This document shows, piece by piece, positions 906 through 63,648 of a DNA stretch of 64,000 bases. The position numbers and the translations under genes are program-made. This DNA comes from Eubacteriales bacterium. GTDB lineage: Bacteria > Bacillota > Clostridia > Oscillospirales > QAKW01. Location of the stretch: assembly GCA_045657265.1 (NCBI GenBank), contig JAZOSU010000035.1, positions 44 to 64,043 of the forward strand, read 5' to 3'. The notes beneath the pieces are model-generated. The model worked only from the letters and a program-made list of their open reading frames with translations, was not told the DNA's origin and did not search any database. Each line of letters opens with the position of its first letter. Within the stretch, counting starts at the first letter, position 1.

Positions 906-947
906 ATAGGGAGAATGGTAAAAAATATAGGGAGAATGGTAAAAAAT
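906..947 (+). repeat. Perfect tandem duplication (2 x 21 bp) covering the RBS of the giant gene
   Basis: ATAGGGAGAATGGTAAAAAAT occurs at 906-926 and again at 927-947. The second copy runs into the ATG at 946. Confidence 0.9.
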
Positions 948-3900
948 GAAACAAGCGAATACTTTCAACAGAATTTTGAGTTCACTTTTAATAATAGCAA
1001 TATTATTATCTGTTTTGCCTGTGCAGATTTTCGGCGCAACTGTAAATTATAATGCTTCAAGATACAGAGCGACCATAACTGTCACGGATAATTCAGGCAG
1101 ACGTGTTACAGGAGCAAAAATAACTGTAACCTGTAGCGGTGATACTCATACCGTGCAGGAAGGCACAAACGGACAGTATTATTTTTCAAGACATGGAAAC
1201 AACCGTAACCATACGTATACTATAACGGTTGAGGCTGACGGTTATGAAACCGGAACTACCACAATGAAAGGTAATTCTACCCGTGCATCAGTTCAGCTTA
1301 CACCTATAGTTACTGAAGTTATTGCGTTCAGAGTTTATTATACGGCAGACGGACATATTCCAAGTAACGGATATTCAGCTACAAATGACCCTGCGGATTA
1401 CGGCCCATCGGCAGATGATACTCCTCTCGTACTTATTAACGTTGATATAACCAAGCTCAAAGAAATAGCAAAACAACCAAATTCACCCGTAGTTTATGGG
1501 GACAGTAATCTTGCATCGGGAAACCAATGGGAGTTTGTTCCCAGAGGAAGCCATACAGATGCAGACTATCTTGAAAAAATCTCAGCGTTCTGGGAAGCGG
1601 TGCTTTCTTGTACAGACGAAGAATCCATCGAAGCATTTAAAGAAACAGGGCTTTTTTCTGAATATAAAGTATACTGTCTTAAAAAACAGTCAGGCGGTTC
1701 TTTCCACGCAGACGGAATACTTGACGTGACACCTCCTGTTTACGTAGTAGAGCTTTATGAGAATACTGTTTTCTTCGGTGGTGGTGTTACTGATAGCGCA
1801 TCAAACAGTAAGTTTTTAACTGCTTATGATATTCTTGACCAGTATGAAGCGCATCTTAAGCAGGTTATTACCTGGGTTGAAGATGAAAACGGCAAACCAA
1901 AGCTTAACGAAAACAATGAATATACAGGTACATACGTAGATACAGCTACAAACAAAATTCATAATATCGCGGTATTCCAGACAAACAAAACCGGCGCAAA
2001 GCCTGTTGAAGGAAGTGAAATTCCTTACGTTAAACAGACAAACACATATTACCTTGCACAGTTCAATATGGATATTGATGAAGGTAAGGTTATCAAATAT
2101 CTTGTTACCTATACCGACGGTGTTGAAAACGAGGTGATATTCAACGAACACGAATATGCCGCTGAAAGATATCAGACAGTTCCTGCATTTACAGGAGTAA
2201 CATTACGTGAAAATTATAATTTTCGGGGTTGGTATCTTGAGGGTTCCACTGACGGAAAGATATATACTGATGCAGAAATTTCACAGATGAGTGTAAATTC
2301 TGATATGACATTCCACGCAGTGTGGGTGCCTGTGCCGAAATATACGGGTACTGTAAAAATTGTTATCAACGGTAAGTATGATGCGCCGACGCAGACATTG
2401 CTTTCAGGTACCATGGCAGATTTGTCAACACCTTTGAAGCTGGAAACCGAACCTACTGTATATCTTTCATCAGATGAACAAGAATATATACTTCTCAGTC
2501 ATACCGAAACAGGCGTGTACAGTGCACAGCTTAAAAACGGAATATACCACGCTTATTATTCTGTTGACGGAGGAGAGACTTATACTAAGCTCAGCGATCA
2601 GCCTCTCATTATGGAAAGTCAGGACAGAACAAGATATATTTTCTATCATACCGTATTACATAATCTCAATGGCGGTATGTTAAATGGGTCGTATGACGAT
2701 ATTCTTGAATATTTCCCAAGTGACGTAAAGGTTATGGTTTGTGACAAAGAACCTGTACGAGAAGGATATATTTTTGATGGATGGCTTACAAACGACGGTA
2801 TTATACATAGACCGGGAGATGTTCTCACAGAATCTATAACAAGACCTTATACCGTTACAGCTCAGTGGATAAAAGCTACAAACGTATATGCACATATAAT
2901 TCTTGACCATTTTGCAGTTGACGGTACAGGCTATAATCCAAGTGATTCAAAACACAATGTTACGTTTACTATCGACCAGAGAGAAAGCGCAGAGGGTGAC
3001 TATACTGAAATTTACCATAAAACAATAAACTGGGATGGTAAGAGCGAATATACAAGTAATGATTATTCATATCGCTACGCAGAAACTTCAAATGAAAACA
3101 AAACAACTTACGTTGCACAGATCCCGAATCTTACAAATGTTTCTTCTGAGTTTGATTATACTGTAACGTCTGCAAAATCAGGTTATATGGTAAAGAGCAT
3201 AGAGAAGGAATATGACCAGAATGGTAATCTTCACATTTACTTTACTATGCAGTTTGATCCCAATGAATTTGACTTTGTATATACAGTAGAGCTTGATGAC
3301 AAGGCAAAAACTTTACCAAAAGAACTTTGGCCTGTGGCAGTTAACGTTAAAGTAACTTGTTTTGAAAACGGTTTGTGGATTCCCATAATCGAACATGCAG
3401 AGACATACGAAAGAGTTACGCTGGGCCAGAACGGTATAGGACATGGTCAATATCCCGTATGGATGGCATCAACTGATGACCTGCCTCAGAACTATTATTA
3501 CCGTATTGAAGTTGTGTCATATGAAATGCCAGACGGCAGAATTGTTGCGGCCGAAAACATAGGTGGCGCCAATACAAATTATGACGCAGTCGATAAAAGC
3601 TATCTTTCTGTTATAGAGATTTCAGGAGGCAAAGACCCTGACACTGCAGATGCCGATGCACTTACAGGTGTTTATTACGAAGATGTTCAGGTAGGTACTG
3701 TCAAGGCAATAGTATCAATCCCTGTTTATACTGTAACATTTATTCCTAACGGTGGTAGGCTTGACGGTTCTTTGGCATCTAAAGTACTTGAAAATCAGAT
3801 AGTTATGCCCAACACTTCCGATTATGTTCCCGAAAGAGACGGCGGATATGTTTTTGAGGGTTGGTATATTCTTGGTGAAAACGGTGAGATGGTGTCAGAA

Positions 3901-6822
3901 GCTGTATCAGGCTCTGCAATAACATCTGATGTTAATCTTATTGCAAAATGGAAAGAACCTGTTACTGTTGAAGGTATAATAACGGTAGGCGCGACCTACG
4001 AACAGCAAAACGATGACGGAAGCGTAACTCTTCATTATGTTCCTGATAATGACAGAGTAACATCTGTTTTGGCTCTTTTACAGAAAAAACACAGCGAGGG
4101 TTACTACGAAACTGTAGACTGGAAAAATATCTCCGTTGATTACAGTAACTACTATTACTATTTCCAGAAAACAGAAGATTTACTTGTGCCTGTAGGCGTT
4201 GGATTCTATTCGTTTTACGGTTTGCCTGACGATGGCAGCGAATACCGCGTATATATTCTTTCGTCAAACTATTCGGCAACATATCAGAATGAGCCAGAAA
4301 GTCTGACTCAGCCTAAAAAATATGATACATACCAAGCTACAGACTATGATGCTCTTTGGGGCACCCAGTTTGAAAAAATTGCAACTGTAAATGCACATAT
4401 GCATTTTGAACCCCAGTCTTTTGACCTTGATTTCAAAGTAGACGCAACCGCTATTGGTGAGAGCTTCCGTCCGGATAAAACAGAAGTTACAGTTACTTGT
4501 GACGTTGACCCTGCTATCACAGAATCTTACAGATGGCCTGTTATTACCCAGATGATATTTGGCGAGGAAATTAAAGGCTGTGACGTTGTTTTGACAGACG
4601 GTGTCGGAAACGGTGTGCAGTCTGTATGGAAAAACGGATTTGACGGTACAACTCTTTACGATTACGGTATATGTATTGTAAATGTTGACGATGCTCCGTT
4701 TGTCGAAGATAATCCTTATTACTATATCGAATATCAGGCTCCTGCTCATTTTGACAGTGTTACAAATGACCAGAGTCAGCTCTTGGTTGCAAACCTTATT
4801 CCAAGAACATATAAGATAAACTACCAGACAAATGGTGGTATTATACTGGGTTCACACGTTTCTTCTCATACCTGGAGTTATGAAACTACCCTTTCACACG
4901 TTGTTCCCGTAAGAGAGGGATATCATTTTATGGGTTGGTATACTGATGAACAGTTGACAACTCCTCTTACCGAAACAACAATAGATGCTTCTGTTGCAAA
5001 TGACATAACTTACTATGCAAAATGGCAACAGACACTTGATGACGTACATATGGAAATTATAATAAACCATAGTACCGATGACGGTGGTATTTGTAACGAT
5101 TACAACAAAAATTTGACAGTATTTTTGACTCACAGACTCAGAGAAGATACACAGTCAGACTTTATCCGTATTGACGGACAGGTCAGAGAATACGATAAAG
5201 GTACATGGCACAATCAAAGCGGTGACCATACTATTGATTATGTTAATGAAGAAGATGTATTTACAGATCTTTCATCAGAATTTGATTATAATCTTTACAT
5301 ACATCTTGATGGCCACTACGTTAACGCTGAAAAATCAACGGTAGTCAAAGAAGTACACGAAGACGGAAGTACAACTCATCACGTTAAAATCTATCTTGAG
5401 TTTGATCCTGATCTTGTTAATATTGATTTCACTGTAGAGATGGCAGAAAATGTGCAAAAAGCACTTTATCCTGTTTATGCAAACGTAAAAGTTACAGCTT
5501 GGACAGGGCTTGAAAACGGAAACTGGCAGACTATTACTCAGCACAGTTCAAAAACAGTAGAAGTTGCCATCGACCAGAGTACAGGTATGGGATACGGAAG
5601 CTATCCTGTATGGCAATGGTACAACAAAGAATTTGAAGTTCCGTATTTCTACAGAATAGAAGTAGCTTCACTCGAACTTATCGACGGCAGTGTTGTTTCT
5701 ATGGAAGAAATTCAAGAGGAAACAGTTTATTCTGCGGCAGGATATACGGCAACGGTATTTGCAGAAAACGGTTGTGAAATCCCGACTGCTATGGACGATG
5801 ACGATAATATTGTCACAGCTGATACAACCCATAAAGGTGCATTCGGCGCATATGAAGACGAAAGCTATAATCAGATAGGTACACTAAGAGCTGTAATTGA
5901 TATCTGCAAGGTTGTATTCCACGCAAACAATACAGAGGCTGACTGCTATGACCAAGCTACGTCAAACGATATGTTCCGTACGTACTATAACAGTGCTGTA
6001 ACTCTTCCACAGGGTGAGTATTACTCACTTAATCAGGACGGAACTATAAATCAGTTTTACGATATTCCTACTTTTGATTATAATACTCACAACGAGTATA
6101 TCTTCAAAGGATGGTATACCGCTCCCGATGACAGCGGAGAAGCTATTGACTGGAGCGAATCATATGAAGGTAATACAGATTTGTATGCTCACTGGATTAA
6201 GGTGGGTTCAGTTATGAAAGATGCCGAAGACACGAAACAGACATCAGGTGATTCATATGCAGGGTATGACCTTATAGGTGCACAGATCCGTGACAGCGCT
6301 CACGATTCAATGCCTCATTACGGTAACCCCGGAAGCGGTCTCAGATTTATAACTGTTCTTAGCGAAGACGTATATAATCAGATAAACGCCATCAAAGGTA
6401 ACCAAGCAGGTGCTGAATACGGTTTTGCGGTTGCAAAAACTTCTTCTGCACAAAGCTATGCGGGAAATACTGAAGGATACGAAATAGAGTATAACGGTAA
6501 AAACGTAAATGGTGTTAACACGACAGCATCTTATAAATACGTGAAAAATATGAAATGCAGCGGTGTTGTAGATCACTTTAACGGCGAAGATTACAGACTT
6601 TATACTGCAGTTATTACATACAACAACCTGCAGGGTGATGCTCTTGAAGCTGCTTACGCAACTCCTTTTGTAGCTCGTTCATATATACGTTATTACGATG
6701 CAAACGGTTTACTTCGTACCTATTACAATAACTATACAGGAACACAGCTCTTTAGCAGTTGTAACACCTCTTTTGCACAGGTACGCGGAATAATTGCAGA
6801 TGGTAACGGAGGCGCTGAGTAA
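946..6822 (+). CDS. Giant secreted/cell-surface protein (1,958 aa) with Listeria-Bacteroides (Flg_new-type) repeats and internally duplicated domains
   Basis: Uninterrupted ORF with signal peptide MKQANTFNRILSSLLIIAILLSVLPVQIFGA. Five repeats of the G(W/Y)...W type: 'YNFRGWYLEG..FHAVW', 'GYIFDGWLTN..VTAQW', 'GYVFEGWYIL..LIAKW', 'GYHFMGWYTD..YYAKW', 'YIFKGWYTAP..LYAHW'. Internal duplication: 'SEFDYTV...FDPNEFDFVYTVE...VNVKVTC...YYYRIEVVSYEMPDGRIV' versus 'SEFDYNL...FDPDLVNIDFTVE...ANVKVTA...YFYRIEVASLELIDGSVV'. No LPXTG, SLH or TM anchor seen. Confidence 0.9.
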   Translation: MKQANTFNRILSSLLIIAILLSVLPVQIFGATVNYNASRYRATITVTDNSGRRVTGAKITVTCSGDTHTVQEGTNGQYYFSRHGNNRNHTYTITVEADGYETGTTTMKGNSTRASVQLTPIVTEVIAFRVYYTADGHIPSNGYSATNDPADYGPSADDTPLVLINVDITKLKEIAKQPNSPVVYGDSNLASGNQWEFVPRGSHTDADYLEKISAFWEAVLSCTDEESIEAFKETGLFSEYKVYCLKKQSGGSFHADGILDVTPPVYVVELYENTVFFGGGVTDSASNSKFLTAYDILDQYEAHLKQVITWVEDENGKPKLNENNEYTGTYVDTATNKIHNIAVFQTNKTGAKPVEGSEIPYVKQTNTYYLAQFNMDIDEGKVIKYLVTYTDGVENEVIFNEHEYAAERYQTVPAFTGVTLRENYNFRGWYLEGSTDGKIYTDAEISQMSVNSDMTFHAVWVPVPKYTGTVKIVINGKYDAPTQTLLSGTMADLSTPLKLETEPTVYLSSDEQEYILLSHTETGVYSAQLKNGIYHAYYSVDGGETYTKLSDQPLIMESQDRTRYIFYHTVLHNLNGGMLNGSYDDILEYFPSDVKVMVCDKEPVREGYIFDGWLTNDGIIHRPGDVLTESITRPYTVTAQWIKATNVYAHIILDHFAVDGTGYNPSDSKHNVTFTIDQRESAEGDYTEIYHKTINWDGKSEYTSNDYSYRYAETSNENKTTYVAQIPNLTNVSSEFDYTVTSAKSGYMVKSIEKEYDQNGNLHIYFTMQFDPNEFDFVYTVELDDKAKTLPKELWPVAVNVKVTCFENGLWIPIIEHAETYERVTLGQNGIGHGQYPVWMASTDDLPQNYYYRIEVVSYEMPDGRIVAAENIGGANTNYDAVDKSYLSVIEISGGKDPDTADADALTGVYYEDVQVGTVKAIVSIPVYTVTFIPNGGRLDGSLASKVLENQIVMPNTSDYVPERDGGYVFEGWYILGENGEMVSEAVSGSAITSDVNLIAKWKEPVTVEGIITVGATYEQQNDDGSVTLHYVPDNDRVTSVLALLQKKHSEGYYETVDWKNISVDYSNYYYYFQKTEDLLVPVGVGFYSFYGLPDDGSEYRVYILSSNYSATYQNEPESLTQPKKYDTYQATDYDALWGTQFEKIATVNAHMHFEPQSFDLDFKVDATAIGESFRPDKTEVTVTCDVDPAITESYRWPVITQMIFGEEIKGCDVVLTDGVGNGVQSVWKNGFDGTTLYDYGICIVNVDDAPFVEDNPYYYIEYQAPAHFDSVTNDQSQLLVANLIPRTYKINYQTNGGIILGSHVSSHTWSYETTLSHVVPVREGYHFMGWYTDEQLTTPLTETTIDASVANDITYYAKWQQTLDDVHMEIIINHSTDDGGICNDYNKNLTVFLTHRLREDTQSDFIRIDGQVREYDKGTWHNQSGDHTIDYVNEEDVFTDLSSEFDYNLYIHLDGHYVNAEKSTVVKEVHEDGSTTHHVKIYLEFDPDLVNIDFTVEMAENVQKALYPVYANVKVTAWTGLENGNWQTITQHSSKTVEVAIDQSTGMGYGSYPVWQWYNKEFEVPYFYRIEVASLELIDGSVVSMEEIQEETVYSAAGYTATVFAENGCEIPTAMDDDDNIVTADTTHKGAFGAYEDESYNQIGTLRAVIDICKVVFHANNTEADCYDQATSNDMFRTYYNSAVTLPQGEYYSLNQDGTINQFYDIPTFDYNTHNEYIFKGWYTAPDDSGEAIDWSESYEGNTDLYAHWIKVGSVMKDAEDTKQTSGDSYAGYDLIGAQIRDSAHDSMPHYGNPGSGLRFITVLSEDVYNQINAIKGNQAGAEYGFAVAKTSSAQSYAGNTEGYEIEYNGKNVNGVNTTASYKYVKNMKCSGVVDHFNGEDYRLYTAVITYNNLQGDALEAAYATPFVARSYIRYYDANGLLRTYYNNYTGTQLFSSCNTSFAQVRGIIADGNGGAE

Positions 6823-6956
6823 TGAAAAAAATCGGATTCCTTTTAATCTGTTTTTGTTTTGTTTTGAATCTTTTAGGCTGTCAGCCTGAAAACAACGATA
6901 AAACTCCCGATAAACCTCAGATAGAAACAGAAATGGATTTTTCGGATTTTGAATAG
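6822..6956 (+). CDS. Small putative lipoprotein (44 aa), below the ORF-track size cutoff
   Basis: The ATG overlaps the stop of the giant gene (TAATG at 6820-6824). Sequence is MKKIGFLLICFCFVLNLLGCQPENNDKTPDKPQIETEMDFSDFE, with lipobox L-L-G-C after a hydrophobic h-region. Confidence 0.55.
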   Translation: MKKIGFLLICFCFVLNLLGCQPENNDKTPDKPQIETEMDFSDFE

Positions 6957-6966
6957 GAGGATGCAG

Positions 6967-7560
6967 ATGAAAAAGACGATATGTTTTTTAGCTATCCTTT
7001 TAATCACATTCTGCGCCGTTTCCTGTACTGATAAAAAAACAGAAATCGGGGATAAAAACAAAAGCGAAATTTCTCAAAGCGCAGATAAAACTCCGATAAC
7101 TGAAGATAATAAAACAGAGCAGTCTGATCCCGAAAATAATAATTCGGGACAGACAACTCCTGAAAACAGTAATTCAGAGCAGATAATATCTCAGCAAGAG
7201 AATAAACCCGAACAGGAGAATAAACCCGAACAGGAAAACAAACCCGAGCAGGAAAACAAACCCGAGCAGGAAAACAAACCTGAGCAGGAAAACAAACCTG
7301 AACAGGAAAACAAATCCGAACAGGAGAATAAACCCGAGCAGGAGAATAAACCCGAGCAGGAAAACAAACCTGAACAGGAAAACAAACCCGAACAGGAGAA
7401 TAAACCCGAGCAGGAAAACAAACCTGAACAGGAAAACAAACCTGAGCAGGAAAACAAACCTGAGCAGGAAAACAAACCTGAACAGGAAAACAAACCCGAG
7501 CAGGAGAATAAACCCGAGCTTGGGAATGACGGATATTACAATCAGGTTATAAAACCGTAG
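6967..7560 (+). CDS. Lipoprotein with a long acidic PEQENK tandem-repeat region (197 aa from ATG 6967)
   Basis: AGGAGG at 6955-6960, then an ATG 6 nt later. MKKTICFLAILLITFCAVSC carries the lipobox A-V-S-C. About 17-18 consecutive P-E-Q-E-N-K hexapeptides follow. The track start at 6949 is an upstream extension. Confidence 0.8.
   Translation: MKKTICFLAILLITFCAVSCTDKKTEIGDKNKSEISQSADKTPITEDNKTEQSDPENNNSGQTTPENSNSEQIISQQENKPEQENKPEQENKPEQENKPEQENKPEQENKPEQENKSEQENKPEQENKPEQENKPEQENKPEQENKPEQENKPEQENKPEQENKPEQENKPEQENKPEQENKPELGNDGYYNQVIKP
7195..7518 (+). repeat. In-frame 18-bp tandem repeat, about 18 copies (encodes PEQENK)
   Basis: Units such as AAACCCGAACAGGAGAAT, AAACCCGAGCAGGAAAAC and AAACCTGAACAGGAAAAC. 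Variation is almost entirely at synonymous third positions. One unit has TCC (Ser) in place of CCC/CCT (Pro). Confidence 0.95.
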
Positions 7561-7574
7561 AATAGGAGGCACGT

Positions 7575-7694
7575 ATGAAAAAACAATATGAAGAGCCTGT
7601 AGTTGAAGTGCTTGTATTAACTGACGAAGCTATAATGTCCAGTGACGACCACGACAACAATTTTGGTGATTTCGGTGATTGGGAAAACTTATAA
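7575..7694 (+). CDS. Unannotated 39-aa peptide, candidate RiPP-type precursor (MKKQYEEPVVEVLVLTDEAIMSSDDHDNNFGDFGDWENL)
   Basis: Perfect AGGAGG (7564-7569) with a 5-nt spacer to the ATG at 7575. The ORF starts 14 nt after the upstream stop. Y5-x-x-P8 leader-like motif followed by an acidic tail. The 3' end overlaps the downstream HPrK-like gene. Confidence 0.5.
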   Translation: MKKQYEEPVVEVLVLTDEAIMSSDDHDNNFGDFGDWENL

Positions 7695-8361
7695 TTATAA
7701 AATTGCGGACATTATCTGGAAGATAAGTCCGCAAAATATATTTACAAAGCAAATGCTTGAGTGCTACAAGACGGAATGTGACAAAGCCGACATAGAAATT
7801 GACATATGTAAGGGCAGTGAGTCAGAAGAGCTTCAGAATCTTCTTTATGAAATCAACAGTCAAATGATTCGCAGTTTTGACGGCGTTATGTTTCACGGCG
7901 CGGCTATTATATATAACGAAAAAGCTTATTTATTTGCGGCGCCCTCAGGTACGGGCAAAACAACGCATATATCTTTGTGGCAAGAATGTTTTTCAGATAA
8001 GGTGACAATTCTTAATGGTGATAAACCTTTTATAAGGTTTACAGACGGAGAATTTTACGTTTACGGAAGTCCGTGGCAGGGTAAGGAAAAGCTTGGGTTT
8101 AACGGCAAAGCACGATTAGGCGGTATTTATCTTTTGCAAAGAGCGGATACAAACAGTATTTGCAAAGCATCGTCAAATCAGATTTTAAACGGACTTGTAA
8201 AATCTGTGCTTATTGAGAAAAATACGCAGGACCGACTTAAAGTTATTGATATTTTAAACCGTATATATAAAACTATTCCCGTAAACGTATTATATTGTAA
8301 TACTGATAAGCAGGCTGCGTATATTGTAAAACAGCATATTGACAGGGAGGCTCCAAAATGA
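7675..8361 (+). CDS. HPr-kinase-like P-loop protein (start uncertain: GTG at 7642, 7666 or 7675)
   Basis: 'FHGAAIIYNEKAYLFAAPSGTGKTTHISLW' places a Walker-A loop after an 'HG..v...g.a.l..G.SG.GK(S/T)T' context, as in HPr kinase C-terminal-domain relatives. The N-terminus 'YNYKIADIIWKISPQN' resembles this family. The gene overlaps the PqqD gene by 4 nt. Confidence 0.65.
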   Translation: MIGKTYNYKIADIIWKISPQNIFTKQMLECYKTECDKADIEIDICKGSESEELQNLLYEINSQMIRSFDGVMFHGAAIIYNEKAYLFAAPSGTGKTTHISLWQECFSDKVTILNGDKPFIRFTDGEFYVYGSPWQGKEKLGFNGKARLGGIYLLQRADTNSICKASSNQILNGLVKSVLIEKNTQDRLKVIDILNRIYKTIPVNVLYCNTDKQAAYIVKQHIDREAPK

Positions 8362-8615
8362 AAATCAAAGACGGTTTTATACTAAGGCCTTTCGGAGATG
8401 CATATATTGCAGTATCTGTATCTGAAGAAAATCCAAACGTTGCGGTGTCGCTTAACAGCGTCGGCGCATTTATCTGGCAAAAGCTTGAAAAAGGCTTGAG
8501 TTTTGAAAATATTTTAAATGATATTACAGATACTTACAACGTTGATTCCGAAAAAGCTAAAAAAGATCTTGAGGTATGTATAGATATATTAAGAAAAGCA
8601 GAAATACTTGAATGA
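8358..8615 (+). CDS. PqqD-family protein (RiPP recognition element-like peptide chaperone), 85 aa
   Basis: 'LNSVGAFIWQKLEKGLSFENILNDITDTYNVDSEKAKKDLEVCIDILRKAEIL' matches the PqqD pattern (LN.tg..iW..l....s..ei...l...y.v....a..D...f...L...gli). Start codon overlaps the upstream stop (ATGA). Confidence 0.8.
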   Translation: MKIKDGFILRPFGDAYIAVSVSEENPNVAVSLNSVGAFIWQKLEKGLSFENILNDITDTYNVDSEKAKKDLEVCIDILRKAEILE

Positions 8616-8639
8616 ATCACTTTAAAGGAGAAAGTATTA

Positions 8640-9548
8640 ATGTTTGTTGAACTTGAATCTATAAATCAGAATATTAAAAAAGATGCATCTTTATTTATTG
8701 CAGAATCTGACAAAATTTATTCTGATAACATTTGTAAAGTTGCAAAAAGTATTATTGCATCTAAGAATAAAAAACCTATAGTTATTATTTCAGGCCCCTC
8801 AGGCTCGGGAAAAACAACAACGGCTCATATTCTTGATTCGTTTCTTGAAAGCGCAGGGATTGTGACTCACACTTTATCTGTTGACGATTATTTTTATCCT
8901 ATGACAGATAAAGAAAAAGAACTGCACAAACAAAATAAACTTAATCTTGAAGGACCTGAAAGGGTTGACAGTGAGCTTCTTAACAGACAGCTGAAAGATA
9001 TAATGAACTGTAAACAGGTTTGTCTGCCAAAATTTGATTTCACTACAAATTCCCGTGAGATGTCAGCGGTGCCGCTTGTTCGTCGTCAGGGTGAGATAGT
9101 AATTATTGAGGGTACGCACGCTCTAAATCCCGACGTTATTTCTTTGCCTGATGAAAACACGGTACGCATTTACGTCAGCGTACGTACACGTGTTAAAACC
9201 AAAGACGGTGAAATGATACATCCCGAATATATAAGGCTTATACGCAGAATGCTTCGTGATAAGCTCTTCAGAGGCAGAAGTTTTACAGATACTGCTCTTA
9301 TGTATCAGAAAGTCCAAGACGGCGAGAACAAATATATTATGCCTTTTAAGAAACGTTCAAGCTTTGATATTGATACGTTTATTCCGTATGAACTCAACGT
9401 ATACAGAGACCTTGTTTTTGAAGGACTTGTAAAAGAGGATATCGTAAGTAAATTTCCTCAGCTTATTTCGCTTATTGAAGATGCGTATCCCTTAGACAGA
9501 AAATATATAACTTCAAAAAATACACTTATTAATGAATTTTTAGGATAA
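8640..9548 (+). CDS. Uridine-kinase/phosphoribulokinase-family P-loop kinase-like protein (302 aa)
   Basis: 'IISGPSGSGKTTTAH', 'SVDDYFY', 'LPKFDFTTNSR', 'VIIEGTHALNP' and 'RLIRRMLRDKLFRGRS' follow the order of uridine kinase motifs. RBS AAAGGAGAAAG lies upstream. Confidence 0.7.
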   Translation: MFVELESINQNIKKDASLFIAESDKIYSDNICKVAKSIIASKNKKPIVIISGPSGSGKTTTAHILDSFLESAGIVTHTLSVDDYFYPMTDKEKELHKQNKLNLEGPERVDSELLNRQLKDIMNCKQVCLPKFDFTTNSREMSAVPLVRRQGEIVIIEGTHALNPDVISLPDENTVRIYVSVRTRVKTKDGEMIHPEYIRLIRRMLRDKLFRGRSFTDTALMYQKVQDGENKYIMPFKKRSSFDIDTFIPYELNVYRDLVFEGLVKEDIVSKFPQLISLIEDAYPLDRKYITSKNTLINEFLG

Positions 9549-9601: not shown

Positions 9602-9639
9602 ATAGCGTAGTAGTTTTAATAACTGCTACGCTATTTTTA
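9602..9639 (+). terminator. Rho-independent terminator closing the 946-9548 plus-strand gene string
   Basis: ATAGCGTAGTAGTT (9602-9615), loop TTAAT, AACTGCTACGCTAT (9621-34), then TTTTT. Confidence 0.65.
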
Positions 9640-9754
9640 TGCAGCCAAGGTGTTGAGACGACAGCGTTTTTGCACTTTAGGAGAAAGACTCGCTCAAAGC
9701 CACGAAATATTAGAAGCTATGGCAAAAAGTCTATGTATAAAAGCAAATAAAAAT

Positions 9755-20824: not shown

Positions 20825-21375
20825 AAAAAGTTTACGTATTTTTAGCAGAAGGCTTTGAAGAGGTTGAAGCTCTTACTCCTGTTGATATTTTAAGAAGAGC
20901 AGGAGCAGATGTTACAATGCTTTCTGTAACAGACTCTCTTACTGTCAAAGGCGCAAGAAACATAGGCGTTCTGGCAGACGGACTGCTTTGCAATACTGAT
21001 ATCTCAGATGCAGATATGATAATTCTGCCCGGCGGATATCCCGGATTTGAAAATCTTGCCAAAAGCAAAGAGGTTATGTCTGCAATAGATTTTATGAATA
21101 AAAACAAAAGATACATTGCATCTATCTGCGGTGCGCCTGCGGCAGTGCTTGGCAAAAACGGATATCTCAAAGACAAAATTGCCGTTTGTTATCCCGATAT
21201 GGAAGATGACCTTAACTGTAAAAGCGTATCTGCAGACGACGTTTGCATATCAGATAATTTTATCACTTCAAAAAGCGCGGCAACTGCAATGAGCTTTTCT
21301 CTTGCACTTACAAAACTGCTTTTCGGACAAGAGAAATATGAAAATATAAAGAAGAGTATAGTATACAATGACTAA
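20821..21375 (+). CDS. DJ-1/PfpI (ThiJ/YajL-like) family protein
   Basis: 'KVYVFLAEGFEEVEALTPVDILRRAG', 'ILPGG' and 'ASICGAPAAVL' (nucleophile-elbow Cys). Confidence 0.85.
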   Translation: MKKVYVFLAEGFEEVEALTPVDILRRAGADVTMLSVTDSLTVKGARNIGVLADGLLCNTDISDADMIILPGGYPGFENLAKSKEVMSAIDFMNKNKRYIASICGAPAAVLGKNGYLKDKIAVCYPDMEDDLNCKSVSADDVCISDNFITSKSAATAMSFSLALTKLLFGQEKYENIKKSIVYND

Positions 21376-22267
21376 AAAAAGCCAGAACACCATAGCAAAA
21401 AAAATATCACTTTTATTGCTTATAATTCTTTCAATGCTTTTCCTGATGGATGCTCTGTCGGGATATCTTTTAAAGAATATAACCAACCTGCACAAGATAC
21501 TCATTTATTGTGTTATTTTTCTGATACCAATTTTTATATATATCAGAAAAAACAAATACAAAGCATCTGAAATCTGCAAACTTTCACACGTTAAACTGCG
21601 CTATCTCCCGTTTATAATCCTTTTCGGACTTTCGGTTTCAATAATAAGCGCGCTTATAAACGCGGCAAGTTCTGCGGTTTTAAGTAATTTCTTCGATATA
21701 AGTATTCCTACGTCAACGGTTGTGTTTGCAAGTGAAAATCCCTTTGTAATAGGACTTACTCACGTGTTTTTACCTGCTTTTTGCGAAGAACTTCTTATAA
21801 GAGGCGTTGCCCTTTCGGAGTACGAAAAATATGGAGTTTCAGTGTCGGTTCTTATAACTGCCCTCATTTTTTCGTTGTTTCACGGCTCGGCAGTTACCTT
21901 CCTTTCGCTTTTTGTGGCAGGTGTATTTTATGCGGTGCTTACACATCTTTTCAAAAGTGTATGGCCCGCAATTTTATGCCACTGCATCAACAACGCTCTT
22001 TCGGTATACATCAGTTATCATTCTGACTACATAAAATATCTTGCTGACGATTTTATTTTTGCGGCAATTTTATGCGTGGTTATCTTTGTAATTCTTTATC
22101 TTACCCTGAGATTTACCGAAAATCTCATTGACGATTTAGGTGACAAAAAACGTCTTAAAACCAATACACGCAAACTGGTTTACGGCGAACCGCTTGCCTC
22201 CTTGTATATTTGGGTTTTCATTATACTCAGCGTAATATTTTCTATTAAAAATACGGGGCTAATATGA
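21368..22267 (+). CDS. CPBP-family (CAAX/Abi) intramembrane glutamic protease
   Basis: Multi-pass hydrophobic protein carrying 'AFCEELLIRG', 'FSLFHG' and 'HCINNAL'. Confidence 0.8.
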   Translation: MTKKSQNTIAKKISLLLLIILSMLFLMDALSGYLLKNITNLHKILIYCVIFLIPIFIYIRKNKYKASEICKLSHVKLRYLPFIILFGLSVSIISALINAASSAVLSNFFDISIPTSTVVFASENPFVIGLTHVFLPAFCEELLIRGVALSEYEKYGVSVSVLITALIFSLFHGSAVTFLSLFVAGVFYAVLTHLFKSVWPAILCHCINNALSVYISYHSDYIKYLADDFIFAAILCVVIFVILYLTLRFTENLIDDLGDKKRLKTNTRKLVYGEPLASLYIWVFIILSVIFSIKNTGLI

Positions 22268-22935
22268 TTAAGAATATTTTATTTGATCTTGACGATACCA
22301 TATTTGATTTCAAAAAATCAGAAGCTGTTGCCATTTCCAATACACTTTCAGAGCTGGGGGCTGTGCCTTCAGCTTTTATTATAAAAAGGTACAGCGAAAT
22401 AAACGACAGTATGTGGAAACAGCTTGAAAAGGGTACACTTACAAGAGAGCAGATTCTCGTTATGAGATTTGCGGTTTTGTTTGAAGAATTCGGTATACAG
22501 GCAAACCCTGCCGAAACCCGAAAGATTTATGAAAAACATCTTTCAAGCGGTCACTTTTTTATAGACGGCGCTTTGGACGTTATTAAAAAGCTTTATAAAA
22601 AATATAATTTATATATTGTATCAAACGGTACCGCAACTGTTCAGAAAGGCAGACTTGAAAGTTCGGGAATTGAAAAATATTTTAAGAAAATATTTATTTC
22701 TCAGAACATAGGATATAATAAGCCTGACATTCGTTTTTTTAAAAAAGTTTTTGAGCAGATAGAAAATTTCAGATCTGATGAAATCATAATAGTAGGCGAC
22801 AGTCTCACCTCCGACATACAAGGCGGAATCAACGCAGGTATAAAAACCGTATGGTACTGTCCCAACGGCTCACCTGATACGTCACCGGCGGATTTTGTTA
22901 TCAGAAATCTTGATGAAATTTTTAATATAGTTTGA
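22264..22935 (+). CDS. HAD-superfamily hydrolase, YjjG-like nucleotidase subfamily
   Basis: 'ILFDLDDTIFDF' (DxD motif I), 'IVSNG' and 'VGDSLTSDIQGGINAG'. Confidence 0.85.
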   Translation: MIKNILFDLDDTIFDFKKSEAVAISNTLSELGAVPSAFIIKRYSEINDSMWKQLEKGTLTREQILVMRFAVLFEEFGIQANPAETRKIYEKHLSSGHFFIDGALDVIKKLYKKYNLYIVSNGTATVQKGRLESSGIEKYFKKIFISQNIGYNKPDIRFFKKVFEQIENFRSDEIIIVGDSLTSDIQGGINAGIKTVWYCPNGSPDTSPADFVIRNLDEIFNIV

Positions 22936-24338: not shown

Positions 24339-27300
24339 TTATTTAAGGATATAGTCTTTGTGGAAGATAGATACGATTACAGAAACTTCTGCTCTTGTTG
24401 CTGTATCCTTAGGAGCAAATCCTGTATCTTTACCTGAAACTATACCTGCCATCTGACAAGCGTAAACTTCGTTTTTAGCCCAAGTACTGATTTTAGCATC
24501 GTCAGGGAATGTAACTTTGTTTACAGCTTTCTTGAGTGTAATCTTCTGATAATTTGCATAACCTACAAGCATTACACACATCTGCTCACGTGTAATTACG
24601 TCTGTAGGAGCAAATGTTGTTGCAGATGTACCGTTTACAATACCGTTATCTGAAGCCCATTTAACTGCGGCTGCATACCAAGCGCCTTCTTTAACGTCAG
24701 TAAACTTAGTTTTAACGTTATTGTTTGTTGTTTTAACGCCTGACATATTAGCAAGTACCTGAACGAATTCAGCTCTTGTAATTGTCTTTGTAGGTGCAAA
24801 TGTTGTATCAGATGTACCGTTCATAAGACCGTATGTTACAGCGTAATCAACGTATTCTTTATACCAGCCTTTAGCATCAACGTCTTTGAATGTCTTAGCT
24901 GAGTTTTCAAGACCTGTCTTTGTACCGGTAGCTGTTACTGTGTTTTTATTTCCGCAAAATTCACAAGTAGCTGTCTTTGTACCGTCTTTAAGAGCAGTGG
25001 CATCACCGTTGTACTTATATGCGCCGTATACGTGTGAATCATTCTTAAAGTTGCCTGTTTCTTTAACAGTCTTGGTTTCACTGCAGCCATTTGTATCACA
25101 TTTAGCGGTCATCTTACCGTCAGATACACAGTTTTCAGAACCTTCAATATGTTTATAGTTTGTAAAGCTATGTGTCTTAAGAATGCTCTTAATAGCTTCC
25201 ATATCAGTTATAAGACTGTCATATGCTGCTTTACTTGCTACTGTTTCAAAACGTTCTTTTGCATTTTTCAATGCTGTTTTAAAGTTTTCAAATGTGTTTT
25301 CGCAGTATTTACCGTTATCGTTATTAACTTTTGAAAGTGAAAGTGCAATTTCGTCATATTTTGTACGGGTTAAAGCTTTACCTGCTTTGATAGCTTTTTC
25401 TATTTCAGCAGCAGCTTCTTCCATGGCTTTCTGACCAAGTTTATCTTCAACAGTCTTCCAACCAGTGTAAACTGCATCATCTAAGCTTTCTTTAAGTGCA
25501 GGAAGCCAGTTTGAAGTATCGGTATCATCTGCTTCGTTAAGAACAGGAATAATTACATCTTCTGCTCCCAGTTCGCCTCTTGTTACTACAATTACGTGCT
25601 CAACTTTAGCACCGCCGAATTCAACTGTTACCTTGTACTCTTTTGTTTCGCCAATGCCAACGCTTACGTTTGTAACCTCTTGATTTCTTGCGTTAAAGAA
25701 TTTAACAACTGAACCGGCAATTTTACCTGTACCTACAAGAGCTTCGTCTTTACCGTCTTTACTGAGAAGTACAGAGAATTTTCCGTCCTCTTGTTTTGTA
25801 GCCTCATTGCCGCCAACAGTTACTGTATCCAATACTGCAATAGGCGGAGTTTTTGTAACAATTATGTGATACTCCTTGTACTTTGTAGCATCAGAGTCGA
25901 GAGATAATTTAAGATATACGGGAATCTCATTAAGAGGAGTTGTAGCTTTTGTTGTAATTTTCCAACCGGCAGTAGTTTTCTGATTCGGTCGTGCCGGATG
26001 TGTTACTACTGAAGTTTCAAGCGGGATATCCATTGTTATTTTATGTGAATCAAGAACTTCTTTGTACAAATTCTTAATAACTAATGTATATTCATATTTA
26101 GAAGATGCATTCACTGCTTCTGTATATACCCCATCAGCTGTTTTACCATCTGCATCAAGATTATTTACGTGGTAGTAGTACTTACCGTTTATCTCATAAA
26201 TATCATCGCTTACAAATTCAAGAGGAATAAGTTCGCCGGCTAAAGATTTCTTTTCTGAATCTGTATAGTAGCTATCAGATTGAATAGTTTTGTTTGTTGA
26301 GACAAATTTAAGCTTTACACCATTTGAATCGGGTAATTTTGTAGGAATAGTTGAAATAATATAGTTTTTCTCAGCAACGCTGCTGTCAGATACTTTTCTG
26401 CCAACATCAACAGTTGTATTGAAACCGATAAGTACGTTATCTGTTATTGTAACAACCATATCTTTAACGTTATTACCTGTATAGTCTTTACCAACAAGAG
26501 TCATACCCGCTGTTGATGCATGAATATAGTTGTTTTTAATGGTTAATTCGTTATGGAAATTATGTTTTGCATCAAGAAACATTGATGCCGAATAAAGATT
26601 GTACTTATAGAAAATATTGTTCTCGAGAACAATAGCTTTTCTGTCGGTATTGTTTGGATTGAACTGAGCGTAACGATCGTTATGTCCCTGAATAAGCATT
26701 CTTTCATTAAAGTTTCTGATGTTACTGTTTTTGATTGTAAATGAGTAATCATCATAAGGAACTGTCAGATAACGATCAGCTGATGCCATTTTTGAGTTCT
26801 TCGCATGGTCAACATAAAGTCCGTCAATTGTAACATGTCTCCACAGATAGTTATCTGAATTTGCAAACAGACCAAACTTTGAAGAATTGTCAAGATATAC
26901 GTTCTTGAGTGTCATACTATCGTTATACTGGTTTATATCGGTAGTATGTTTGTTTGATGTTTCTTCTTTATATGTGCTACCGTTTTTTACATATCTTTTC
27001 TTGAAATGATTGCCCAGCAAAAATCCGGCATATTCTTCACCACTAATCGGAGCTTTCTTCCAGTAAAGATTTTCAATTTTAACGTTGATATCATCTTCAG
27101 GTGATCTTTCGGGATCACCGGCATTGCCTAAGTCATCCTGAATAACACCTTTGAGAGTAAATCCGTAAAATTCGTAATTACCTTTAACGGCTGTGTTGAA
27201 TTTAAGCCAGGTAACCGTAATACCTTTGGTTGTATCAAATGCATCTGCTTTACCTGTATTAACGTTTGATACCCAATCAGAGCCGTCCTGTTTTGTGCCT

Positions 27301-60950: not shown

Positions 60951-61040
60951 TCCCCTTTTCAGTTTATCATATGCAAGTTATTGTAATTTGGTAATTAATA
61001 TGATAAAATATTTATTTGAAATTTATTTTTGGAGTTTAAA

Positions 61041-62933: not shown

Positions 62934-63648
62934 GACTCTTACCGAGCTTTTAAACAAGGACAGAATTATATTTTCAGAGGATTTTGCTGACAAAATAGAG
63001 CAGTTTTCCGATATTTTTATCGAAACCTCAAAACACCTTAATCTTACCGCCATCAAAGAACCTCACGACATTATGATAAAACATTATTACGATAGCATTT
63101 ATCCGCTGTCAACAGGTGTTTTCAAAAAAGACGCAAAGGTGATTGACATCGGTTGCGGAGGCGGTTTTCCAAGCATTCCCTTGAAACTTGCACGGCCTGA
63201 CCTTGATTTTACTTTACTTGATTCACTCAAAAAACGCCTCACTTTTTTAGACGGAGTCATAAACGAGCTGTCACTTGATAAAATCACAACTCTTCACGCA
63301 AGAGCCGAAGAAGCATCAAGAAAAGAAGATCTTCGCGATAGCTTCGATATTGCCGTTTCAAGAGCGGTTGCGCCTCTTAACGTACTTTGCGAATATTGTC
63401 TGCCTTTTGTCAAACAGGGCGGAATTTTCATAGCTTATAAAGGCATTCCCGACGATGCGGAGATGGAATCGGCAATGGTTGCAATTTCCAAGCTTTCTTC
63501 AAGGGCTGAGGGTATGATTTCTTATAAACTGCCCGAGGGAATGGGTGAGCGTACCCTTATTATAATAAGGAAAACTGCTCCCACGCACCCGATGTACCCG
63601 AGAAGTACAAAAAATATGGCTAAATCACCACTTGGCACAGAGAAATAA
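62917..63648 (+). CDS. rsmG: 16S rRNA (guanine527-N7)-methyltransferase RsmG (GidB)
   Basis: 'NLTAIKEP.D...KH..DS', SAM motif 'VIDIGCGGGFPSIPLK' and 'V.SRAVA.L'. Overlaps mnmG by 17 nt. Confidence 0.93.
   Translation: MKNEIKTLTELLNKDRIIFSEDFADKIEQFSDIFIETSKHLNLTAIKEPHDIMIKHYYDSIYPLSTGVFKKDAKVIDIGCGGGFPSIPLKLARPDLDFTLLDSLKKRLTFLDGVINELSLDKITTLHARAEEASRKEDLRDSFDIAVSRAVAPLNVLCEYCLPFVKQGGIFIAYKGIPDDAEMESAMVAISKLSSRAEGMISYKLPEGMGERTLIIIRKTAPTHPMYPRSTKNMAKSPLGTEK

Follow-up and report, generated by a model that had tools for sequence, protein, structure and literature searches.

The analysed window (the whole stretch of 64,000 nucleotides, contig JAZOSU010000035.1) contains a string of co-oriented genes between positions 946 and 9548 in which a 39-aa ORF is followed by genes for a P-loop protein and a PqqD-family protein. 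The features were as follows.

946 to 6822 (+): 1,958-aa secreted surface protein with Listeria-Bacteroides (Flg_new) repeats (Pfam Flg_new, 1e-31).
6822 to 6956 (+): 44-aa lipoprotein (lipobox LLGC) with the C-terminus EMDFSDFE.
6949 to 7560 (+): lipoprotein (lipobox AVSC) of about 200 aa with roughly 20 EQENKP repeats, ending in GNDGYYNQVIKP, with its stop 14 nt before the peptide gene.
7564 to 7569 (+): Shine-Dalgarno sequence AGGAGG, 5 nt upstream of the peptide's ATG.
7575 to 7694 (+): precursor-like peptide gene, ATG to TAA, encoding the 39 residues MKKQYEEPVVEVLVLTDEAIMSSDDHDNNFGDFGDWENL.
7675 to 8361 (+): P-loop enzyme of predicted HprK/PEPCK fold carrying FHGAAIIYNEKAYLFAAPSGTGKTTHISLW, a predicted peptide Ser kinase (start codon uncertain).
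8358 to 8615 (+): PqqD-family RiPP recognition element (85 aa), lasso-B1-like, its ATG overlapping the kinase stop (ATGA).
8640 to 9548 (+): nucleoside (uridine-kinase-family) kinase, 302 aa, starting 24 nt after the PqqD ORF and probably co-transcribed.
9602 to 9642 (+): intrinsic terminator closing the co-oriented gene string 946-9548.

The sequence features described in the initial annotation were all confirmed, with two corrections. The 39-aa ORF had been called unannotated, but it is present as a called protein (P0226) in a public NCBI-derived protein collection. The overlap of its 3' end with the kinase gene depends on the kinase start codon: NCBI calls ATG 7753 (202 aa, no overlap), but given that homologues align from YNYKIADIIW the start is more likely GTG 7675 (20-nt overlap) or TTG 7663, and GTG 7642 is also possible. 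The terminator (14-bp stem, 5-nt loop and T-run, with stem and T-run at 9602-9634) is the only strong plus-strand terminator between 946 and 9700, and none separates the surface protein gene from the cassette.

Identity of the encoded proteins

The kinase was assigned by several comparisons. In the family alignment (A1) the residues H74, S91-G-T-G-K95, T97, D116, P118, P133, G136 and K137 are invariant, and all are present in the window protein. An hhalign comparison of A1 with BsfK, a validated lasso-precursor Ser kinase, gave 96.9% (E = 1.6e-10) over 142 columns including LHGSAV…GRSGAGKST. The AF2 model had a pLDDT of 95.3 and its top Foldseek hits were only PEPCK and HprK/P. Precomputed annotation lists Pfam ScmC (PF27840) for the window protein (P0001) and most homologues, often flagged as weak, whereas a Pfam search with a copy lacking this model gave no hit. 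The kinase misses the curated cut-offs of every NCBIfam relative (ScmC 19.5 bits against 125; HprK_rel_A only in a homologue).

The PqqD protein matched Pfam PqqD (PF05402) at E = 1.7e-12, 47.9 bits against a cut-off of 23.4. Its best solved relatives are lasso B1 chaperones: the profile of its family (A5) hit TbiB1 at 3.6e-10 and TfuB1 at 8.8e-9 but true PqqD only at 0.048, and hhalign to BsfB1 gave 97.1%. The NCBIfam lasso_PqqD models scored below their cut-offs (30 against 70 and 27 against 80).

The 39-aa peptide consists of a leader-like part, residues 1-22 (MKKQYEEPVVEVLVLTDEAIMS), a junction Ser (S22/S23) and an acidic tail without hydroxyl residues (DDHDNNFGDFGDWENL). Y5 and P8 of a lasso-type leader are present. 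A Thr at position -2 or -3 is found in most of the family but not in the window (IMSS), and the tail lacks Asp or Glu at positions 7-9 if the core starts at S23. The NCBIfam model lasso_PadeA_fam scored 13.6 bits against 27 (E = 0.041), and the family's leader profile scored real lasso precursors at no more than 7.5 bits while shuffled sequences reached 10.5. The likeness to lasso YxxP leaders that had been proposed is at pattern level only, and homology was not demonstrable.

The gene at 8640-9548, previously proposed as a second P-loop kinase of the system, was judged a housekeeping neighbour and rejected as a component. It matched the Pfam PRK family (PF00485, E = 4e-18, 66 bits against 22) but scored only 75 bits against 220 for uridine kinase (udk, TIGR00235). 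It has 2,265 homologues at E<=1e-20, and NCBI names a 72%-identical homologue 'nucleoside kinase'. A 55%-identical homologue sits in an unrelated context (P0116), two unrelated genes (PHP and EutH) separate it from PqqD in the related contig L083, and only 1 of 80 kinase loci has a homologue nearby.

Conservation and composition of related clusters

The peptide is conserved in two related contigs, L081 and L083 (L numbers denote the related loci examined, P numbers proteins of the public collection), at least as well as the enzymes. In L081, which also keeps GGAGG, 31/39 residues are identical (79%), with 6 synonymous and 8 non-synonymous codon changes, all to chemically similar residues; identity to L083 is 59%. 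The peptide belongs to a family of at least 107 small proteins, found at E<=0.01 against 5.8 billion sequences, with a conserved leader (MKxxYxxPxxE…EDIITAS) and a short, hypervariable acidic tail. These results indicated that the ORF is more than a chance occurrence and is a genuine conserved gene. In five of six look-ups centred on a peptide, ScmC lay directly downstream, and in four of these a Pfam PqqD hit followed it. The family therefore shows the generic arrangement of a RiPP cluster, a short precursor with a conserved leader and a variable core next to an RRE and a modifying enzyme.

A gene-neighbourhood survey, one of the checks named beforehand, showed that the full cluster consists of peptide, kinase, PqqD, a soluble S26/SipW-type peptidase, an NTP_transf_5 nucleotidyltransferase and sometimes an ABC exporter. 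The cassette is not a unique orphan but a reduced member of a very large family (3,773 kinase clusters at 50% identity, E<=1e-30). PqqD directly follows the kinase in 52 of 81 loci, S26 is present in 43 and the nucleotidyltransferase in 17. A peptide of this family was detected in 14 of 81 kinase loci, in nine of the 17 with the nucleotidyltransferase and in 5 of the 64 without it. In 21 loci the kinase is alone among housekeeping genes, and it may therefore have other substrates. In 27 loci with kinase and S26 but no family peptide, a scan for small ORFs anchored on ribosome-binding sites found nothing convincing; the precursor may there be unlinked or of another type. Natural fusions link these proteins: kinase-PqqD (P0077, P0468, P0475), kinase-S24/S26 peptidase, kinase-NTP_transf_5 and S26-NTP_transf_5. 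The recurrent protein of about 150 aa after PqqD had no Pfam hit at E<=0.01, but its invariant motifs GxSMxP, LHRI and GDN match SipW/archaeal-type boxes rather than a Cys protease, and it has no N-terminal membrane anchor.

No lasso cyclase was found in 89 related loci (about 1.1 Mb) or in the window. A scan for the PP-loop SGGxDS motif of Asn-synthetase-like cyclases returned only a ThiI-like protein in L065, and neighbourhood clustering gave no recurrent candidate for cyclase or B2 and no recurrent protein of about 600 aa other than the ABC transporter. Within the 64 kb no B2 protease, radical SAM enzyme, S26 peptidase, NTP_transf_5 or ABC exporter was found; S26, nucleotidyltransferase and ABC profiles gave no hit, and Pfam searches of nearly all other ORFs showed housekeeping genes. 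The nearest full cluster, L013, carries the orthologue of the 1,958-aa protein together with peptide, kinase, PqqD, S26 and nucleotidyltransferase, and the window, L081 and L083 lack the last two.

The linkage to the surface protein and the lipoproteins, which had been noted from the single sequence, is conserved in relatives. Orthologues of the 1,958-aa protein lie next to the same cassette in L083 and L013, and giant secreted proteins sit directly upstream of the peptide gene in L008, L039, L045, L055, L070, L071, L078, L087, L089, L091 and L092, in L092 with a 4-nt overlap. This arrangement was found in at least 7 of 13 independent lineages against a background of 5.6% (binomial p≈2e-6). 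The upstream giants have varied domains (Flg_new, MBG, beta-helix, CBM, LRR_5), none has an SLH domain or another recognised wall anchor, and no shared motif or C-terminal domain was found among them beyond close relatives. Lipoproteins with the same C-terminus as that at 6949-7560 occupy the same position in L081 and L083, and similar low-complexity lipoproteins flank the cassette in L014, L022, L059, L070, L074 and L088. Of six comparisons of lipoprotein C-termini with the peptide tail of the same locus, only L070 was significant (RFGPIIDG against GFGPIIG, p≈0.003), the window (EMDFSDFE against FGDFGDWE, p≈0.03) and L088 were marginal, and no similarity was seen in the other three.

Interpretation and comparison with known systems

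The interpretation given in the initial annotation, a leader-guided peptide phosphorylation or similar system, was partly supported. We consider it somewhat more likely than not that the cassette is a reduced member of a widespread clostridial peptide-modification system that is built from lasso-type tailoring parts but makes no lasso. In this view the 39-aa peptide is a ribosomal precursor, its leader would be bound by the PqqD/B1-like chaperone, and the chaperone would present it to the ScmC/HprK-like kinase, which would use ATP to phosphorylate a Ser at the leader-core junction (S22/S23), these being the only hydroxyl residues other than Y5 and T16. In complete relatives the S26/SipW-type peptidase would then remove the leader, the NTP_transf_5 enzyme, of the family of PsmN, would decorate the phosphate, and an ABC exporter would sometimes secrete the short acidic peptide. 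The lineage of the window would have lost or relocated those three genes while keeping peptide, kinase and chaperone in one transcription unit with a giant surface protein and two lipoproteins. The homology of kinase and chaperone, the conservation of the peptide, the cluster composition, the gene fusions, the absence of a cyclase and the synteny with giant proteins rest directly on our data, whereas leader binding, ATP- and B1-dependent phosphorylation and its site, cleavage, export and any role linked to the surface protein are inferred without experimental support. Given that no peptidase or exporter lies within the 64 kb, the fate of a modified peptide in this organism is unexplained, and if the target Ser lies in the leader the modification would be removed on cleavage.

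Other explanations appeared less likely. The kinase and chaperone might serve the giant surface protein or the lipoproteins, with the peptide as an adaptor, competitor or regulator, for example a soluble copy of the acidic/aromatic lipoprotein tail that binds or releases the anchor-less giant protein. The positional association, the lack of wall anchors, the tail similarities and the solo kinases are compatible with this, but an RRE with a leader-bearing small peptide is the classic enzyme-substrate arrangement, the tail similarity was significant in only one of six comparisons, giant proteins are common in these genomes (five in this window), the giants share no motif, and no precedent is known for an HprK-like/B1 pair acting on a large secreted protein. 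We regard this as unlikely. Similarly unlikely is that the cassette is a drifting remnant without a current product after loss of the peptidase, nucleotidyltransferase and exporter. The contrast with L013, the lineage's junction (IMSS|D, IMTS|D), which departs from the family consensus ITAS|G, and the absence of Ser or Thr from the window's tail would fit. However, the three ORFs are intact with every family-invariant kinase residue kept, the same gene set is kept in three diverged genomes (kinase identity 66% to L081, with the L083 kinase also diverged), the peptide's changes are to similar residues, and the ribosome-binding site and translational coupling are retained.

A true lasso precursor whose B2 and cyclase are encoded elsewhere in the genome is very unlikely. 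The kinase and PqqD protein are most similar to lasso-pathway proteins, the leader pattern MKKxYxxPxxE…T-x-x resembles leaders of lasso precursors predicted or known in Firmicutes (PMC7533575), and some family members have G or S followed by Asp at position 8-9, for example L045 SGFGLSVFD. Against this stand the absence of an Asn-synthetase-like protein from the 89 loci and the window, the S26 peptidase in the place of B2 and fused to the nucleotidyltransferase as B2 is in real lasso clusters (PMC8498205), cores of in many cases only 8-12 residues, too short for a lasso, and the leader profile that does not score real lasso precursors. The alternative core start of the window's peptide would give an N-terminal Asp, which is not known from lasso peptides.

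No paper was found on PF27840 or on cyclase-less HprK/PqqD/S26 clusters, although one search on ScmC was swamped by unrelated acronyms. The data leave room for a more far-reaching but doubtful possibility, that gut and rumen Clostridia carry a widespread, undescribed class of cyclase-less linear RiPPs in which a B1-type chaperone and an HprK-like kinase phosphorylate a junction Ser, a PsmN-like transferase decorates it and an S26 peptidase that has displaced B2 removes the leader. The precursor genes are coupled to genes for giant, anchor-less surface proteins, in places with overlapping or closely spaced coding regions, and the short acidic peptide and the similar lipoprotein tails would act as ligands that tether, mature or release these proteins. 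If the system works as proposed, the lasso tailoring module (kinase, B1, nucleotidyltransferase) would be shown to function as a free-standing pathway with a different leader peptidase and no lasso, defining a new linear phospho- or phosphoglyco-peptide product type. The kinase family is concentrated in uncultured gut and rumen Clostridia, where almost nothing is characterised, and the coupling to giant proteins hints at a role in cell-surface biology rather than, or as well as, antibiosis. Full clusters in two cultured carriers, Anaerotaenia torta DSM 100431 (L045) and Blautia aquisgranensis CLA-JM-H16 (L078), make the system directly testable.

Among known systems, HPr kinase/phosphorylase (HprK/P) and ATP-dependent PEPCK share the P-loop fold, and the His-x(n)-GxSGxGKS/T arrangement aligns, but sequence identity is about 10% with TM-scores of 0.3-0.56, the HprK N-terminal domain is absent, there was no Pfam Hpr_kinase_C hit and the genomic context differs. 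The HPr-rel-A system is defined by the same three protein types, an HprK-like kinase (TIGR04352), a PqqD-like protein (TIGR04353) and a PF14907 nucleotidyltransferase. Hits to it were below threshold and only in homologues (21 bits against 200 and 19.4 against 35), with none for the window proteins at E<=1. With the SynChlorMet cassette (ScmC TIGR04249, ScmD TIGR04248) the system shares the precomputed ScmC annotation of kinase homologues and a weak match of the PqqD protein to ScmD (21.1 bits against 100), and two related loci (L032, L072) pair the kinase with a radical SAM enzyme and a Cys-containing peptide; there are no ScmE/ScmF radical SAM/SPASM proteins in the window or in most relatives.

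The closest systems are the kinase-containing lasso-peptide clusters, paeninodin PadeK/PadeB1, Bradymonas BsfK/BsfB1 and pseudomycoidin PsmK/PsmN. BsfK phosphorylates Ser3 of its precursor and its B1 protein accelerates the reaction (PMC10368454), and PsmN adds hexose to the phospho-Ser (PMC8498205). Shared features are a kinase homologous to BsfK, a chaperone homologous to BsfB1, TbiB1 and TfuB1, a short precursor with an N-terminal MKKxYxxP-type leader and, in full relatives, an NTP_transf_5 enzyme, an ABC exporter and a fusion of the nucleotidyltransferase to the leader peptidase, as reported for B2 in Firmicutes. In contrast, no lasso cyclase or transglutaminase-type B2 was found in the family, the leader peptidase slot is filled by a soluble S26/SipW-type serine peptidase, cores are often too short for a lasso and lack any Ser, and there is no C-terminal Ser, which is the PadeK target. 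The cluster is instead coupled to giant surface-protein genes, and in the window it comprises only peptide, kinase and chaperone.

The peptide gene and the three proteins encoded beside it

All of the sequence features described in the initial annotation were found in the sequence, and its observation therefore holds. They are arranged as follows.

7174 to 7560: about 20 tandem copies of an 18-nt unit encoding EQENKP within a lipoprotein gene (6949 to 7560), which also create long spurious ORFs on the opposite strand (7174 to 7572 and 7191 to 7493).
7575 (ATG) to 7694 (TAA): the 39-aa ORF, encoding MKKQYEEPVVEVLVLTDEAIMSSDDHDNNFGDFGDWENL, with AGGAGG 5 nt upstream and its start 14 nt after the stop of the repeat-rich lipoprotein ORF.
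Next ORF: the P-loop protein, carrying FHGAAIIYNEKAYLFAAPSGTGKTTHISLW, with an uncertain start codon.
From 8358: an ORF of 85 aa, which overlaps the stop of the P-loop ORF by ATGA.
24 nt further on: a 302-aa P-loop ORF.
9602 to 9634, plus strand: the only strong plus-strand terminator between 946 and 9700.

For the first P-loop protein NCBI calls ATG 7753 as the start (protein record P0001, 202 aa), but homologues of 230-250 aa align from 'YNYKIADIIW'. GTG 7675 is therefore the most plausible start, which gives a 20-nt overlap with the peptide gene. The 39-aa ORF is itself a called protein in the public collection (record P0226).

The 85-aa protein matched Pfam PF05402 (PqqD) at E=1.7e-12, above the gathering score. 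A profile built from 30 orthologues found lasso B1 chaperones as the best solved relatives, with TbiB1 at 3.6e-10, TfuB1 at 8.8e-9 and a 'lasso peptide biosynthesis PqqD family chaperone' at 3.7e-8, while genuine PqqD scored only 0.048. Comparison with BsfB1 by hhalign gave 97.1%.

The first P-loop protein had no hit in the Pfam copy searched and only sub-threshold NCBIfam hits to ScmC, but its homologues carry the newer Pfam family PF27840, 'ScmC'. An alignment of 36 sequences showed invariant H74, SGTGK(91-95), T97, D116, P118, P133, G136 and K137. The AF2 model was confident (pLDDT 95.3) and its Foldseek hits in the PDB were exclusively ATP-dependent PEPCK and HprK/P; the sequence profile also picked PEPCK and HprK across the segment from the His to the P-loop. 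When the family was compared by hhalign with BsfK, using the sequence given in PMC10368454, the result was 96.9%, E=1.6e-10 over 142 columns. In that study BsfK was shown to phosphorylate Ser3 of its precursor, and BsfB1 to accelerate the reaction.

The third protein, a nucleoside kinase, is a PRK/uridine-kinase-family protein. The initial annotation had included it in the cassette as a second P-loop kinase, but this was rejected on several grounds. It has 2,265 homologues at E<=1e-20, typically 47-72% identical, and a 55%-identical homologue follows an RNase J-like gene with no ScmC or PqqD nearby. In the related locus L083 (L numbers designate related loci), PHP and EutH genes separate it from PqqD, and only 1 of 80 kinase loci has a homologue nearby, which is about what chance predicts.

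The peptide is a real gene, and two relatives keep both the peptide and the gene order. In L081, whose kinase is 66% identical, the peptide is MKKEYQEPMVEIIVLTDEAIMTSDDHDNSFGDFGDWDNL, with six synonymous and eight non-synonymous codon differences, all to chemically similar residues, and the RBS and the order lipoprotein-peptide-kinase-PqqD-nucleoside kinase are retained. In L083, a more distant relative, the peptide MKMEYEQPIIEVLIISDEKIMTSGEHDNSFGDFEDWEDDFDL sits between a lipoprotein and the kinase, downstream of a 1,950-aa Flg_new protein. An HMM built from small ORFs next to kinase homologues found family members in 14 of 81 loci, and a profile search of 5.8 billion proteins returned 107 small proteins of 31-71 aa at E<=0.01. 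Their consensus is MKEKY(T/L)xPE(M/I)E(I/V)xEFExEDIITAS-G, followed by a hypervariable, mostly acidic tail of 8-25 residues. A conserved leader with a variable core is the usual signature of a RiPP precursor or a pheromone precursor.

Composition of the related clusters

A genome scan gave at least 581 species with a kinase relative, and 80 loci were kept. The kinase family has 3,773 clusters (50% identity) at E<=1e-30 and 18,927 at E<=1e-3.

Table. Features next to the kinase in 81 loci, counting the window.
Feature: number of loci
PqqD directly after the kinase: 52
Protein of about 150 aa after PqqD: 43
NTP_transf_5 (PF14907): 17
ABC exporter: 14
Kinase alone among housekeeping genes: 21

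The protein of about 150 aa has invariant GxSMxP, LHRI and GDN motifs and no membrane anchor, and it weakly matches archaeal/SipW-type signal peptidase I; we read it as a soluble S26-type leader peptidase. The nucleotidyltransferase belongs to the family of PsmN, which glycosylates the phospho-Ser of pseudomycoidin (PMC8498205). Natural fusions tie the parts together: kinase-PqqD (protein records P0077, P0468 and P0475), kinase-Peptidase_S24 (P0433 and P0440), kinase-NTP_transf_5 (P0340) and S26-NTP_transf_5 (locus L079), the last of which mirrors the B2-nucleotidyltransferase fusions reported in Firmicutes lasso clusters (PMC8498205).

Peptides were enriched where the nucleotidyltransferase is present (9 of 17 loci, against 5 of 64 without it). 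When loci were instead looked up from the peptide, five of six had ScmC directly downstream. Four of those five had a Pfam PqqD hit after it, and three continued with a protein of about 140-153 aa with no Pfam hit on record (the length and position of the S26 protein) and then a full-length NTP_transf_5 protein; in L090 an extra 115-aa gene intervenes and the NTP_transf_5 hit is on a shorter, 273-aa product. No Asn-synthetase-like cyclase was found in about 1.1 Mb of related loci or in the window, and no recurrent B2-like protein appeared.

Other arrangements of the kinase were also seen. In L032 (531-3648) and L072 (210-2513) a sub-family of peptides (MKYTAPVAEL…, with Cys in the core) sits before the kinase, which is followed by a radical SAM enzyme (PF04055/Fer4_12) instead of PqqD and S26. 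This is a different pathway built on the same kinase and leader and is reminiscent of the SynChlorMet cassette. In the Christensenellaceae-type loci L007, L026, L031, L044, L049, L056, L061 and L063 (around 8000-9000), kinase-PqqD pairs have no peptide, peptidase or transferase nearby and are followed by DUF1846 and, in most of these loci, groES/groEL; the 21 loci with a kinase standing alone among housekeeping genes are additional to these. Rce1-like genes directly follow solo kinase copies in L012, L024 and L043, and HAD genes do so in L016 and L047. A CAAX/Rce1-like intramembrane protease and a HAD hydrolase also lie 12 kb from the cassette in the window (21368-22935), although this may be coincidental synteny.

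Compared with the fuller clusters, the window carries a reduced version, as profiles for S26 and the nucleotidyltransferase found nothing in the 64 kb. The other ORFs are histidine biosynthesis, thyX/tmk, gidA/gidB and similar genes, together with four further giant proteins. The locus L013, which carries a 52%-identical orthologue of the 1,958-aa surface protein, has peptide-kinase-PqqD-S26-nucleotidyltransferase. The window, L081 and L083 therefore look like a lineage that lost or relocated the peptidase and the transferase. Given that all three retained genes are intact and conserved, simple decay is argued against. In this lineage the locus probably lies near the chromosomal replication origin, with gidA/gidB at the window's end (61029-63648) and trmE, jag, yidC and rnpA next to the syntenic cassette in L083 (6101-10204).

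Association with genes for giant secreted proteins

The initial annotation had remarked that the cassette appeared co-transcribed with the 1,958-aa surface protein and two lipoproteins, and an unexpected association in the related loci supports this remark. The peptide gene lies 0-100 nt downstream of a gene for a secreted protein of 659 to more than 2,563 aa on the same strand in L008, L039, L045 (Anaerotaenia torta DSM 100431), L055, L070, L071, L078 (Blautia aquisgranensis), L087, L089, L091 and L092, and in L092 the two genes overlap by 4 nt. In the window and L083, lipoproteins lie in between. The stretches in the window and in eight of these loci are listed below.

Window: 946 to 7694
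L087: 725 to 7102
L071: 239 to 6628
L089: 4769 to 7108
L092: 1644 to 7135
L091: 3305 to 7141
L045: 4085 to 7915
L008: 3 to 7856
L078: 9937 to 14371

Only 5.6% of ORFs of at least 100 aa in these loci are that large. After close relatives were collapsed, 7 of 13 lineages showed the arrangement, which is far more frequent than this background (p≈2e-6). The giants have varied domains (Flg_new, MBG, beta-helix, CBM, FIVAR and LRR_5), and none has an SLH domain or another recognised wall anchor.

The four further giant ORFs of the window are all on the minus strand: 24339-31016, 31122-35987, 36359-43588 and 49184-57028, of 2,225, 1,621, 2,409 and 2,614 aa. Two have C-terminal SLH triplets and two have no Pfam domain at all. 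About half of the window encodes giant proteins, but no second peptide of the family lies next to these four.

Lipoproteins with long low-complexity linkers flank the cassette in many loci, including the window (6822-6956 and 6949-7560), L070 (7484-8005), L088 (305-754), L083 (1470-1946), L022 (7505-7960), L074 (7525-7992) and L014 (113-670). Some of their C-terminal tails resemble the peptide tail of the same locus, as in L070 (…RFGPIIDG against …GFGPIIG, p≈0.003) and the window (…EMDFSDFE against …FGDFGDWENL, p≈0.03). The resemblance was judged significant only in L070, and other pairs were not significant.

Inferred mechanism and comparison with lasso-peptide clusters

The best-supported reading is chaperone-guided phosphorylation of the peptide. 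The interpretation offered in the initial annotation is partly supported, without its second kinase. The leader would be expected to bind the PqqD protein by beta-strand addition, as in the TbiB1-leader complex (PDB 5V1V). Many cores contain no Ser, Thr or Tyr, for example DDHDNNFGDFGDWENL in the window and GDIDGDID and GNDLPEIGL in other members. The only hydroxyls available across the family are therefore Y5 and the junction T-x-S, which is S22/S23 in the window, and this makes the junction Ser the most likely target. The consensus TAS|G is also a good signal-peptidase-type site, given that S26 enzymes prefer small residues at -3 and -1, and cleavage by the S26 protein is predicted around it; phosphorylation may therefore gate or follow cleavage. 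None of this is shown experimentally: the homologies, the conservation of the peptide and the gene arrangements come from the sequence comparisons, whereas the phosphorylation, its guidance by the chaperone, its site and the cleavage are inferred.

Within the limits of the library searched, no paper was found that describes a cyclase-less HprK/PqqD/S26/nucleotidyltransferase cluster or its link to giant surface proteins. The kinase and the chaperone are homologous to those of lasso clusters, but the likeness of the leader is not statistically demonstrable and membership of the lasso class fails on its two defining enzymes. We regard the system as differing in this respect from the lasso clusters already described, with a plausible route to a new RiPP class.
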